NCBI RefSeq assembly: GCF_013167455.1
Contig: NZ_CP038328.1
Length of the DNA stretch: 64,000 nt
DNA from: Escherichia coli O157:H7
GTDB lineage: Bacteria; Pseudomonadota; Gammaproteobacteria; Enterobacterales; Enterobacteriaceae
Direction: 5' to 3' (one strand)
Shown here: positions 18,001 to 21,000 of the stretch, piece after piece
How positions within the stretch are numbered: position 1 is the stretch's first letter
Layout: each line of letters starts with the position of its first letter
Program-made: the position numbers

Positions 18001-21000
18001 TTTAATTAATCACACACGAGATGTTGATATCAATGAGCCAGACGGACCAACGAATCTTTCCGCATGGATGAGACTTAAGAATAAAGAATTACCTCCTTCA
18101 CCGCATCACTACTAACAGATTGCCAACGAAATGACCCAGCTTCGGCTGGGTTTTTATCAGGAGTTCTCATGCTCTATAGCAATATATTGGCGCACGCCCG
18201 GCGATGTGCACCAGCGGAGTCGTGCGGCTTCGTGGTGAGAACGCCGGAAGGGGAAAGATATTTTCCCTGCGTGAATATCTCCGGTGAGCCGGAAGATTAT
18301 TTCCGGATGTCGCCGGAGGACTGGCTGCGGGCAGAAATGCAGGGGGAGATTGTGGCACTGGTCCACAGCCACCCCGGTGGTCTGCCCTGGCTGAGCGAGG
18401 CCGACCGGCGGCTGCAGATAAAAAGTGCACTGTCCTGGTGGCTGGTCTGCCGGGGGGAAATTCATAAATTCCGCTGTGTGCCACATCTGACAGGACGGCG
18501 CTTTGAGCACGGGGTGACGGACTGTTACACGCTGTTCCGGGATGCCTACCATCTGGCGGGAATTGATATGCCGGATTTTGAGCGTGAGGATGACTGGTGG
18601 CGCAACGGTCAGAACCTTTACCTGGACAATATGGCGGTCACCGGCTTTTACCGGGTGCCCCTGTCCTCTGCACAGGCGGGCGATATCCTGCTGTGCTGCT
18701 TTGGCGCATCGGTGGCCAATCATGCCGCCATATACTGCGGCAACGGTGAACTGCTTCACCATCTGCCTGAACAACTGAGTAAACGGGAGAGGTATTCCGA
18801 AAAATGGCAACGACGAACGCATTCAGCCTGGCGTCACCGCCACTGGCACGTATCTGCCTTCACGGGGATTTACAACGATTTGGCCGCCGCCTCAGCCTGT
18901 ACGTGAACACGGCAGCGGAAGCCATCCGTGCCCTGTCGCTGCAGATGCCGGGATTCCGCCGTCAGATGAACGAAGGCTGGTACCAGATACGTATTGCCGG
19001 TGATGACACGGCACCGGAGGCGGTGTACGCCCGTCTTCACGAACAGCTGGGTGAGGGAACGGTCATCCACATTGTGCCGCGACTGGCCGGGGCCGGAAAG
19101 GGTGGACTGCAGATTGTGCTGGGGGCGGCGGCCATCGTGGGGTCGTTCTTCACGGCCGGGGCATCAATGGCGTTATGGGGTTCAGCCCTGGCAGCCGGTG
19201 GTTTTTCTGCCACCACGATGCTGTTTTCACTGGGGGCCAGCATGATACTGGGCGGTGTGGCCCAGATGCTGGCACCGAAGGCAAAAACACCGGATTACCG
19301 CGCAACGGATAACGGCAGACAGAACACGTACTTTTCCTCACTGGACAACATGATTGCTCAGGGGAACCCGATGCCGGTGCCTTACGGTGAAATGCTGGTT
19401 GGCTCACGGCGAATCTCCCAGGACATCAGTACCCGTGATGAAGGTGGTGACGGGAAGGTGGTGGTTATCGGGCGGCAGGCATAAAAGCGAAAAAATCCCG
19501 CAGTGACCGAAGGCTGCGGGAACAGAAAATGAAGATTAACCACAGGGAGTTTTGTTTTTATTGGCCCGAAAAAACTGTAACGCCCGGGAATGATATCTGC
19601 CACGGGGGCGTACAGAAAATGTGAAGAAATTCAGAAATTTTATTCCGTCATGACACAGGCACCCTCCGGGGTGCCTGTCGTTTTTGGGGCATAAACAGAT
19701 TCAGACATCAGACATCAGACATCAGACAGGAGAGGGGGACCGAGTGGGTAAAGGTGGCGGCAGGGCACACACGCCGGTTGAGGCAAAGGACAATCTTAAG
19801 TCCACGCAGATGATGAGCGTGATTGATGCCATTGGTGAAGGGCCGATTGAAGGTCCGGTGAAGGGGCTGCAGAGTATCCTGGTGAACAAAACCCCGCTGA
19901 CGGACACGGACGGTAATCCTGTGATACATGGTGTGACCGCGGTCTGGCGCGCCGGGGAGCAGGAGCAGACACCACCTGAAGGCTTTGAGTCCTCCGGGGC
20001 GGAAACCGCACTGGGCGTGGAAGTGACGAAGGCAAAGCCGGTGACGCGCACCATTACGTCCGCGAACATTGACCGCCTGCGGGTCACCTTCGGGGTGCAG
20101 TCACTGTTGGAGACCACCTCAAAGGGCGACCGTAATCCCTCTTCTGTCCGACTGCTGATTCAGTTGCAGCGTAACGGTAACTGGGTGACGGAAAAGGATG
20201 TCACCATTAACGGCAAGACCACCTCGCAGTTTCTGGCGTCGGTGATTCTGGATAATCTGCCTCCCCGTCCTTTTAACATCCGGATGGTCCGGGAGACGGC
20301 GGACAGCACCTCGGACCAGCTGCAGAATAAGACGCTCTGGTCGTCATACACCGAAATCATCGATGTGAAACAGTGCTACCCGAACACGGCGATTGTGGGG
20401 CTGCAGGTGGATGCGGAGCAGTTTGGTGGCCAGCAGATGACGGTGAACTACCATATCCGAGGTCGCATCATCCAGGTGCCGTCAAACTATGACCCGGAAA
20501 AACGCACGTACAGCGGCATCTGGGACGGCAGCCTGAAACCGGCATACAGCAACAACCCGGCCTGGTGCCTGTGGGACATGCTGACTCACCCGCGCTACGG
20601 CATGGGAAAACGCCTGGGGGCGGCGGATGTGGACAAGTGGGCGCTGTATGCCATTGCGCAGTACTGCGACCAGATGGTCCCTGATGGTTTCGGGGGCACA
20701 GAGCCGCGGATGACCTTTAATGCGTACCTGTCACAACAGCGTAAGGCGTGGGACGTTCTCAGTGATTTCTGCTCGGCGATGCGCTGTATGCCGGTATGGA
20801 ACGGCCAGACGCTGACGTTCGTTCAGGACAGCCCGTCGGATGTGGTGTGGCCGTACACCAACAGTGATGTGGTGGTGGATGATAACGGCGTGGGGTTTCG
20901 CTACAGCTTCAGCGCCCTGAAGGACCGCCACACGGCGGTGGAGGTGAATTACACCGACCCGCAGAACGGCTGGCAGACCTCCACGGAACTGGTGGAAGAC

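Follow-up and report, generated by a model that had tools for sequence, protein, structure and literature searches.

An opposite-strand small-RNA gene, a terminator-like hairpin and a heptamer array between tail genes I and J of an Escherichia coli O157 Shiga-toxin prophage

Results

Layout of the I-J spacer

The window, by which we mean the whole 64,000-nt stretch of E. coli O157:H7 DNA analysed here, contains two tail genes on its plus strand that are separated by a spacer of 259 nt, as read from the sequence and the ORF list. The gene for tail assembly protein I (18804-19484) ends with the stop codon that forms the left edge of the spacer, and it carries this annotation in the Stx2 phages 1717 and 2851, which are 100% identical over the region. 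The gene for the host-specificity or tail-tip protein J (19744-23238) was assigned from the ORF list, phage tblastn and the annotation of identical phage records. Its GTG start at 19744 was set by alignment to the ATG of lambda J (MGKG...) and agrees with the RefSeq start in a relative; together with the ribosome-binding region, AGGAGAGGGGGA, it occupies 19728-19746 on the plus strand. A preliminary description of this DNA had given the spacer as 260 bp, one more than its actual length. The prophage that hosts it is an E. coli O157 Shiga-toxin prophage.

The spacer consists of three parts: a small-RNA gene on the minus strand, a hairpin on the plus strand and an array of heptamers in the J leader.

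A small-RNA gene of the PasB/EcOnc22-24 family on the minus strand

The small-RNA gene (19489-19583, minus strand, opposite to I and J) was found with a covariance model built from 11 members (EPEC PasB, Sakai EcOnc22 and others), none of which has the sequence type of the window. The window copy matched this model over its full length at 70.8 bits (E = 3e-10), and the runner-up in the 64 kb reached 18.5 bits. A scan of the spacer against Rfam matched no family at either gathering or permissive thresholds; Rfam has no model for the PasB/EcOnc22-24 family. The RNA would end in the U-run at 19490-19495 and begin somewhere in 19568-19583, at a length of about 79-94 nt.

Members of this family have been studied experimentally by others. 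In O157 Sakai, EcOnc22, EcOnc23 and EcOnc24 were crosslinked to Hfq, detected on northern blots at about 85 nt and found to be Hfq-dependent, being destabilised without hfq (Tree et al., 2014, PMC4104026, Tables S2/S3C). PasB of EPEC E2348/69 was likewise detected by northern blotting and is Hfq-dependent (PMC8550237, Tables S2/S6); its level drops 5- to 100-fold without hfq, and it has 37 RIL-seq partners (PMC8550237). The preprint of Zhu, Shabalina & Storz (2026) reports a hit to PasB in phage YYZ-2008; this phage and the window share 99.8% identity.

These RNAs could be placed precisely. The northern probe for EcOnc22/23/24 aligned with the identical spacers of Sp11, Sp14 and Sp15 over 23 contiguous bases (24/33 overall) on the tail-sense strand, and the Hfq-CRAC peaks of Sakai lie 29-89 nt from the I stop with the probe site inside them, once coordinates are shifted by +128 between Sakai genome versions, a shift that we verified with the AgvB1 and EcOnc06 probes. 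The PasB probe is an exact match to the E2348/69 spacer, where the 83-nt RNA ends in the U-run adjoining I and its mapped 3' end is the last U of that run. Since the probes carry tail-sense sequence, the RNA is antisense to the tail genes; the validated members map to the I-J spacer on the strand opposite the tail genes, and so does the match in the window. An identity with the AgvB/AsxR-type anti-sRNAs was considered and rejected, as that class sits downstream of PR' and not in the I-J spacer.

The window copy ends in an intrinsic terminator on the minus strand (19490-19520), in which CCCGCAG (19520-19514) and CTGCGGG (19503-19497) enclose a 10-nt loop and are followed by A and U6 (19495-19490). 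It folds at -14.0 kcal/mol, and one of 200 shuffled sequences was as stable. The stem is preserved by paired changes, namely CCCACAG/CTGTGGG in two diverged IMG/VR loci (L031 and L052) and CTCCCG../..CGGGAG in another module type. RNAalifold applied to all module types together returned no structure, with two unrelated terminator types misaligned.

PasB resembles the window gene in its position on the opposite strand of a lambdoid prophage I-J spacer, in the CCCGCAG/CTGCGGG stem with its U-run against the I stop, in the ACUCC and GUU(A/G)AUCUUCAU motifs and in the same upstream promoter block (PMC8550237; Zhu, Shabalina & Storz, 2026). However, the 5' third and the terminator loop of the two differ in sequence, and the targets of the window RNA may therefore differ as well. 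EcOnc22-24, from the I-J spacers of Sp15, Sp14 and Sp11, are similarly antisense to the tail genes and share the module layout and an identical plus-strand hairpin, whereas the central (5') region is different in the Sakai copies, which have two heptamers rather than four and TTTTCT rather than TTTTT after the hairpin. The 5' third of the window copy is unlike that of both the EPEC and the Sakai validated RNAs.

Along the I-J stretch of the late mRNA, the PasB-type RNA has perfect complementarity. Pairing in trans between the window RNA and the J translation-initiation region gave no signal (duplex energy -32.5 versus a shuffle mean of -33.3).

The preliminary description had missed the hairpin at 19497-19520 with its T6 on the minus strand, which is the minus-strand terminator. 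Nor had it recognised the opposite-strand small-RNA gene that takes up about 95 nt of the spacer plus the promoter block.

The candidate promoter of the small RNA

Upstream of the small RNA, alignment of the modules revealed a conserved block (19611-19647, minus strand; CAGAAAATGTGAAGAAATTCAGAAATTTTATTC on the plus strand) that is nearly invariant across 45 distinct module sequences. In tandem arrangements of two modules, each module carries a copy of this block, and the plus-strand hairpin remains single. Two candidate -10 boxes, TATCAT (19595-19590) and TACAGT (19580-19575), were found on the minus strand at 19575-19595. In the same column, within an otherwise variable stretch, the relatives read TATAAT, AATAAT, CATAAT or TATAAA, always 24 nt from a conserved TCACA. 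The upstream box fits the northern size of about 85 nt in Sakai and the downstream box fits the 5' end of PasB estimated in EPEC. The candidate promoter thus comprises a conserved -10-like box at fixed spacing, two possible start sites and, in the window, a weak -35; a simple consensus promoter scan returned nothing at this place. Within the conserved block, TGTGA-N6-TCAGA (19620-19635) matches the CRP core at nine of 10 positions. We rejected its reading as a CRP site, as the window contains two such matches against 2.4 expected, no excess over chance, and, counted from the better -10 box, its centre would fall at about -44.5, a non-canonical CRP position; it is retained as a lead only.

The plus-strand hairpin before J

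A terminator scan located a hairpin just upstream of the J leader on the plus strand (19655-19685), and the perfect 10-bp stem followed by T5 that had been described earlier was confirmed there. It consists of ACAGGCACCC (19655-19664), the loop TCCG, GGGTGCCTGT (19669-19678) and CGTTTTT (19679-19685), with seven G-C pairs in the stem, and folds at -23.1 kcal/mol (z = -4.2; 0/200 shuffles as stable). The tract that follows the stem is CGUUUUU here and UGUUUUCU or UGUUUUU in relatives, and a typical tract is longer, at 7-9 nt. Because this U-tract is short, the hairpin may terminate poorly.

Lambda was said to have abutting I and J genes; in fact 60 nt lie between them (NC_001416, 15445-15504), and they hold a terminator-like hairpin with a T-rich tail directly upstream of the J ribosome-binding site. 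The stem of the lambda hairpin (ACCGCC/GGCGGT) is unrelated in sequence to that of the window, although the predicted dot-bracket shape of the two is identical. Unlike the window, the short lambda spacer has neither a small-RNA module nor heptamers. Four different hairpin sequences occupy this position before J, in the window, in lambda, in EPEC E2348/69, where the stem is that of the window and the loop is different, and in an ExPEC prophage, where the stem is an unrelated ACCCCGGTATC. The hairpin sequence is identical in L031 and L052 despite their diverged flanks, but since an exact match to the hairpin was what retrieved these loci, the conservation of the hairpin cannot be gauged from the IMG/VR sample. 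Since the window hairpin stands in the same place as that of the lambda spacer, a terminator-like hairpin before J looks, from these sequence comparisons, ancestral to lambdoid phages. The description of the hairpin as terminator-like is borne out, and a hairpin is conserved at this position; that it is special to this prophage does not hold, as lambda has the same shape.

The heptamer array in the J leader

The untranslated J leader holds a tandem array of (TCAGACA)x4 (19701-19728, plus strand; TRF period 7, 4.0 copies, 100% matches). The four perfect heptamers were as first described, except that the array ends 15 nt, not 16 nt, before the J GTG; the last heptamer overlaps the first base of the AGGAG of the J ribosome-binding region. 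The 14-mer TCAGACATCAGACA occurs in the 64 kb only within the array, against 0.01 occurrences expected by chance.

The repeat is indeed length-variable, as had been proposed, with 2 to 6 copies among related prophages. Relatives in IMG/VR carried two copies at about 88 loci, three at 5 and four at 5, and the scans of IMG/VR returned no array with exactly one copy and none with five or more. The 5- and 6-copy alleles were seen only in complete E. coli genomes, where spans that imply five copies occurred in eight records and six copies were read directly in RM14516. The span of four copies was present in 21 records among the matches listed for these genomes, with an identical allele and mostly under the name O157:H7; 148 records matched the spacer over all 259 nt at an identity of at least 99%, and the identical 4-copy allele is probably present in about 100 genomes. 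Two and four copies were found on nearly identical flanks, and the expansions arose on at least two different flanking backgrounds. Heptamers are absent from the J leaders of EPEC, ExPEC and lambda. In contrast to what a fast switch would produce, all 21 genomes listed share one identical 4-copy allele. Even in the diverged J leader of L031 and L052, at least a degenerate heptamer pair is retained, which hints that a pair of copies may have a function. No match to the heptamer sequence emerged from a search of the literature.

Since the array lies upstream of the Shine-Dalgarno sequence, its copy number alters neither the reading frame nor the spacing between the Shine-Dalgarno sequence and the start codon. 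Folding predicts a Shine-Dalgarno accessibility of 0.76-0.78 that is unchanged over 2-7 copies, and a promoter scan found no promoter that spans the array. By these analyses, a change in array length would alter neither a reading frame nor promoter spacing nor ribosome-site geometry, through which phase-variable repeats act.

Discussion

Taken as a whole, the I-J spacer of this prophage is likely to combine a PasB-type small-RNA moron, a hairpin of ancestral type that Q-modified polymerase reads through, and heptamers whose extra copies are neutral or nearly so. The small-RNA gene would be an independent insertion with its own promoter and its own terminator set directly against the I stop codon, spanning a promoter region up to about 19647 and an RNA from 19583 to 19490. 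In this it resembles the phage morons, in which extra DNA with a promoter and a terminator lies between conserved phage genes (Juhala et al., 2000; for small RNAs, Tree et al., 2014), and the moron-like unit of the I-J spacer is sometimes present in two tandem copies. Unlike the morons highlighted by Tree et al. (2014), which lie downstream of PR', the cargo here is an opposite-strand small RNA within the tail operon. By homology, the RNA would be transcribed in the lysogen counter to the tail operon, stabilised by Hfq and able to pair in trans with many mRNAs. We infer transcription of the window copy in the lysogen from its homologues, whose expression comes from the experiments of others.

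The late transcription of lambdoid phages is antiterminated by Q, and intrinsic terminators are ignored. The plus-strand hairpin therefore probably halts only RNA polymerase that lacks the Q modification, which would include stray rightward transcripts in the lysogen from the tail genes or the small-RNA promoter region, whereas in lytic growth Q-modified polymerase would pass it. A further role of the hairpin may be to stabilise processed mRNA from upstream at its 3' end. The heptamers would form an unstructured C/A-rich stretch between this stable hairpin and the J Shine-Dalgarno sequence; their usual state is two copies, and replication slippage would have given rise to 3-6 copies in several lineages. 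Judging from the folding predictions and the population patterns, the added copies most likely have little or no effect on J expression.

The spacer had originally been read as a device for the separate control of J, in which the hairpin would act as an attenuator or terminator that separates J transcription from the tail operon and the heptamers as a contingency repeat that tunes J by slippage. The strength of the hairpin and its retention at this position speak for such control, as do the polymorphism of 2-6 copies with independent expansions and the lack of translational coupling, since J, 259 nt away from the I stop, has a ribosome-binding site of its own. We nevertheless consider this reading unlikely. 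Intrinsic terminators are overridden by Q in established lambda biology, lambda itself carries the same kind of hairpin before J, so that the window hairpin is no special adaptation, and the stem is followed by no more than T5, with TTTTCT in its place in Sakai. Lying upstream of the Shine-Dalgarno sequence, the repeat changes neither frame nor spacing nor predicted accessibility with its length; no promoter was found to span it, and the 4-copy allele is fixed in many strains. The array is similar to the contingency loci of Haemophilus, Neisseria and others in that it is a short tandem repeat of non-triplet period and varies in copy number among relatives; it differs from them in lying neither in a coding frame nor between a -35 and a -10, in its low copy number (2-6) and in the stability of one allele across many strains. 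A variant of J control in which the heptamers are a slippage-tunable standby platform, with at least two copies required and extra copies raising J translation, and in which this platform and the antisense RNA together give J a separate dosage, appears quite unlikely. If it were true, the prophage would set the amount of its host-specificity protein apart from that of the other tail proteins.

Two further readings assign the plus strand a product of its own. In the first, the hairpin would form the 3' end of a plus-strand small RNA in its own right, or of an RNA from the 3'-UTR of the I transcript, so that the spacer would hold a back-to-back pair of small RNAs; AAAUUUUAUUCCGUCAUGAC with the hairpin and U5 is reminiscent of the 3' modules found in Hfq-binding small RNAs, and conservation is high over the 40 nt that precede the hairpin. 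However, that conserved block duplicates with the minus-strand module and without the hairpin, there is no conserved plus-strand -10 box, no tail-sense Hfq peak is listed for the I-J spacers of Sakai Sp11, Sp14 and Sp15, and the novel sRNAs of EPEC (PMC8550237) include no RNA of this kind, all of which makes this reading very unlikely. Alternatively, the hairpin could be the terminator of a small protein encoded by a plus-strand ORF of 31 amino acids (19529-19624, MKINHREF...), which is present in both the window and Sakai and contains ATGAAGATTAAC, conserved in many variants. Yet the ATG is ACG in several variants, the frame and the stop vary, gaps of 5 and 10 nt fall inside the ORF, and the conserved stretch corresponds to GUUAAUCUUCAU in the validated minus-strand RNA. 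The ORF was rejected on the grounds that neither its start codon nor its frame is conserved among relatives, and a small protein must be regarded as a most improbable explanation.

In summary, the I-J spacer is a real but largely ordinary feature. Its terminator and its heptamer repeat are by themselves ordinary and would matter only if they were shown to tune J. The I-J spacer occurs in about 780 of 5,426 complete E. coli genomes, at a median of four copies per genome and some 2,600-3,000 copies in all, and the corresponding gap of 240-340 bp was unannotated in every E. coli and phage record that we inspected. The gene goes by two names, EcOnc22-24 in EHEC and PasB in EPEC; EHEC homologues receive no mention where PasB is listed in Table S6 (PMC8550237), and the link between EcOnc22-24 and PasB was not found in the literature examined. 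The practical gain is therefore one of annotation, in that a seemingly empty gap carries the gene of a validated Hfq-dependent small-RNA family. The spacer is moreover modular, with one or two small-RNA units and a conserved upstream block on each, and so offers a handle on the diversification of prophage small RNAs.

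Results

The tail genes I (ORF 18804-19484, plus strand, with its TAA stop ending at 19484, as read from the window sequence) and J are separated by a spacer of 259 nt, for which the best reading is an already described small-RNA moron, a terminator-like hairpin of the type that precedes J in several lambdoid phages and a low-copy polymorphic repeat. The hairpin and the four heptamers (TCAGACA) of the preliminary description were both recovered, by terminator scan and folding and by TRF with perfect matches, respectively. The region matches the Stx2-converting phages 1717 and 2851 at 100% identity and phage YYZ-2008 at 99.8%. 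Among 5,426 complete E. coli genomes, 780 contain the 259-nt spacer (median 4 copies per genome), and no annotation lies under it. A plus-strand ORF of 31 aa in the spacer was rejected as unconserved, the aligned spacers showing an ATG-to-ACG change, frame shifts and gaps of 5 and 10 nt. With exactly four heptamers, no stop codon interrupts the J frame back to a TTG at 19684 (19684-19743), and the ORF list gives this TTG as the J start (1184 aa). The real start is the plus-strand GTG at 19744, as judged by homology to lambda J (MGKG...) and by how RefSeq annotates relatives.

Judged by sequence homology, the I-proximal half of the spacer is an already described small-RNA gene, read from the minus strand. 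A covariance model built from 11 family members, with the window's own sequence type left out, matched 19489-19583 (minus strand) over its full length with 70.8 bits (E = 3e-10). The runner-up in the window, a weak match at 1129-1219 (minus strand; 18.5 bits, E = 0.31), is essentially just a terminator-like hairpin with a U-run and is probably unrelated to the family. A second spacer hairpin, CCCGCAG-N10-CTGCGGG (19497-19520), had been missed previously; since A6 precedes it on the plus strand, the minus strand reads hairpin and then U6, that is, an oppositely directed terminator.

EcOnc22, EcOnc23 and EcOnc24 are Hfq-crosslinked RNAs of the Sakai prophages Sp15, Sp14 and Sp11, respectively, are ~85 nt long by northern blot and are destabilized without hfq (Tree et al., 2014; PMC4104026). 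The coordinates in that study refer to an older version of the Sakai record and need a shift of about +128 from 1.94 Mb onward, as measured with published probes for AgvB1 and EcOnc06. After correction (NC_002695.2 2902842-2902902, 2676771-2676832 and 2166822-2166881), the Hfq peaks lie within the I-J spacers of these prophages (2902691-2902930, 2676622-2676861 and 2166672-2166911), 29-89 nt from the I stop, include the northern-probe site and are oriented against the tail genes, which occupy the minus strand in the current record. The northern probe is tail-sense sequence (23 contiguous bases match, 24/33 overall), so the RNA detected must be antisense to the tail operon. PasB of EPEC E2348/69 is an 83-nt minus-strand RNA (1466343-1466261; probe AATCCCGCAGTGATCGCGGAGCT) with 37 RIL-seq partners and log2 changes of -6.8 and -2.4 without hfq; its Table S6 row gives no EHEC homologues (Pearl Mizrahi et al., 2021; PMC8550237). 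In the I-J spacer of E2348/69, that probe matches the first hairpin exactly on the tail-sense strand, and the mapped PasB 3' terminus coincides with the final U of the run adjoining the I stop (NC_011601.1 1466261-1466343). EcOnc22/23/24 and PasB are one small-RNA family at one locus.

Alignment of 101 IMG/VR loci having the plus-strand hairpin in common, together with several E. coli records, yielded 53 distinct spacers and 45 distinct modules, each module being one small-RNA gene with its upstream block. All 45 share one minus-strand order: the nearly unvarying block AATAAAATTTCTGAAATTCTTCACATTT, a variable stretch of exactly 24 bases, a -10-like box, GCGTTAC, a U-run with a variable stretch, ACUCC and GUUAAUCUUCAU, and a terminator. 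The terminator stem is either preserved through paired substitutions (CCCACAG/CTGTGGG) or gives way to another hairpin (CTCCCG.../...CGGGAG). The box is TATAAT, AATAAT, CATAAT or TATAAA in relatives and TATCAT in the window, and predicts RNAs of 90-104 nt. The EPEC 5' end, an RNA-seq estimate, lies 15 nt downstream of the start predicted from this box and agrees with a second box, which reads TAGTGT, or TACAGT in the window; on this basis the 5' end of the window's small RNA is placed within 19568-19583.

Two modules occur in tandem in 14 of 100 IMG/VR loci (e.g., L003, L012, L014, L036 and L099) and in E. coli RM14516 (L106 1-385; NZ_CP043937.1); their terminator hairpins and 5' regions differ, and each has the conserved upstream block. 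In RM14516 the block is duplicated with each module and the plus-strand hairpin is single, which assigns the block to the small-RNA promoter and the hairpin and heptamers to the J leader. Within the block (19611-19647), TGTGA-N6-TCAGA (19620-19635) matches the CRP core at 9/10 positions, is invariant in all modules and keeps a constant distance of 24 nt to the -10-like box; by itself the match is at chance level and its implied position, ~-44.5, is non-canonical. It could be a site for CRP or another regulator of the small RNA.

The heptamer array (19701-19728, plus strand, 100% TRF matches) is the only occurrence of the double unit in the 64 kb (0.01 expected). Heptamer number, compared among related prophages, indeed varies, from 2 to 6 copies. 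IMG/VR loci, the window excluded, carry 2 copies in ~88 cases, 3 in 5 and 4 in 5, and none has exactly 1 or at least 5. In complete E. coli genomes, counted as match spans against a 6-copy query, one record (RM14516) has 6 copies, confirmed by reading the sequence, eight have spans implying 5, and 21 among the best 30 of 787 records, mostly named O157:H7, have a 4-copy span; a spread sample suggests such a span in ~10% of the 787, and the remaining records mostly carry 2. At least two distinct flanking backgrounds show expansions, and alleles of 2 and of 4 copies are found on nearly identical flanks, a pattern that fits replication slippage.

Elsewhere in the window, a 162-bp unit repeated 3.7 times (8181-8773; 97% identity, 75-bp sub-period) probably represents repeated domains within a head or tail structural gene, and a GGN-CCN codon-rich 45-bp tandem repeat (24919-25009), within an ORF starting at 23968, looks like a collagen-like Gly-X-Y stretch of a tail-fibre gene. 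Three identical ALIL pseudoknot matches of 121.5 bits each (42991-43107, plus; 54582-54698 and 63426-63542, minus) indicate three IS3-family copies, probably of IS629, in the right half of the window. Three equally scoring tRNA-Asn (GTT) genes are interspersed with the IS copies (52021-52096 and 55742-55817, minus; 57566-57641, plus), which suggests that the window leaves the prophage and enters the chromosomal asn-tRNA region.

Discussion

The plus-strand hairpin before J (ACAGGCACCC, loop TCCG, GGGTGCCTGT; 19655-19678; then CGTTTTT) has a folding energy of -23.1 kcal/mol (z = -4.2), matched by 0/200 shuffles. It had been set against a lambda in which I and J abut; the lambda gap is in fact 60 nt and itself holds a hairpin (ACCGCC-TGCG-GGCGGT, then TTTTGTCATTT) of the same dot-bracket shape. 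EPEC E2348/69 has the window's stem with a different loop, followed by TTGTTTTTG; in an ExPEC prophage the place is taken by an unrelated hairpin of 11 bp and then TTCTCTTT. The presence of four differing hairpin sequences at one position speaks for a conserved structural role and shows that the feature is not peculiar to this prophage.

The earlier proposal that this hairpin and the array tune J expression was right that the hairpin and a variable repeat exist, but the proposed control of J finds little support. In lambda, the polymerase on the late operon is Q-modified and ignores intrinsic terminators, so the hairpin should not limit J in lytic growth. Most likely, we infer, it would stop unmodified polymerase in the lysogen or stabilize the mRNA. 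The array is non-coding and lies upstream of AGGAG, which argues against a regulatory switch, as does predicted Shine-Dalgarno accessibility, which is 0.76-0.78 throughout 2-7 heptamers vs. 0.60-0.66 for 0-1. We also counted against a switch that the EPEC, ExPEC and lambda J leaders are without heptamers, that pairing of the small RNA with the J start region did not go beyond shuffled controls, and that no mention of the heptamer repeat was found in the literature.

In practical terms, 4-copy heptamer alleles may lead automatic callers to over-extend J. The link between EcOnc22-24 and PasB and the modular, sometimes tandem layout of the small-RNA genes are useful by-products of this analysis, and the conserved block upstream of their promoter may bind a regulator.
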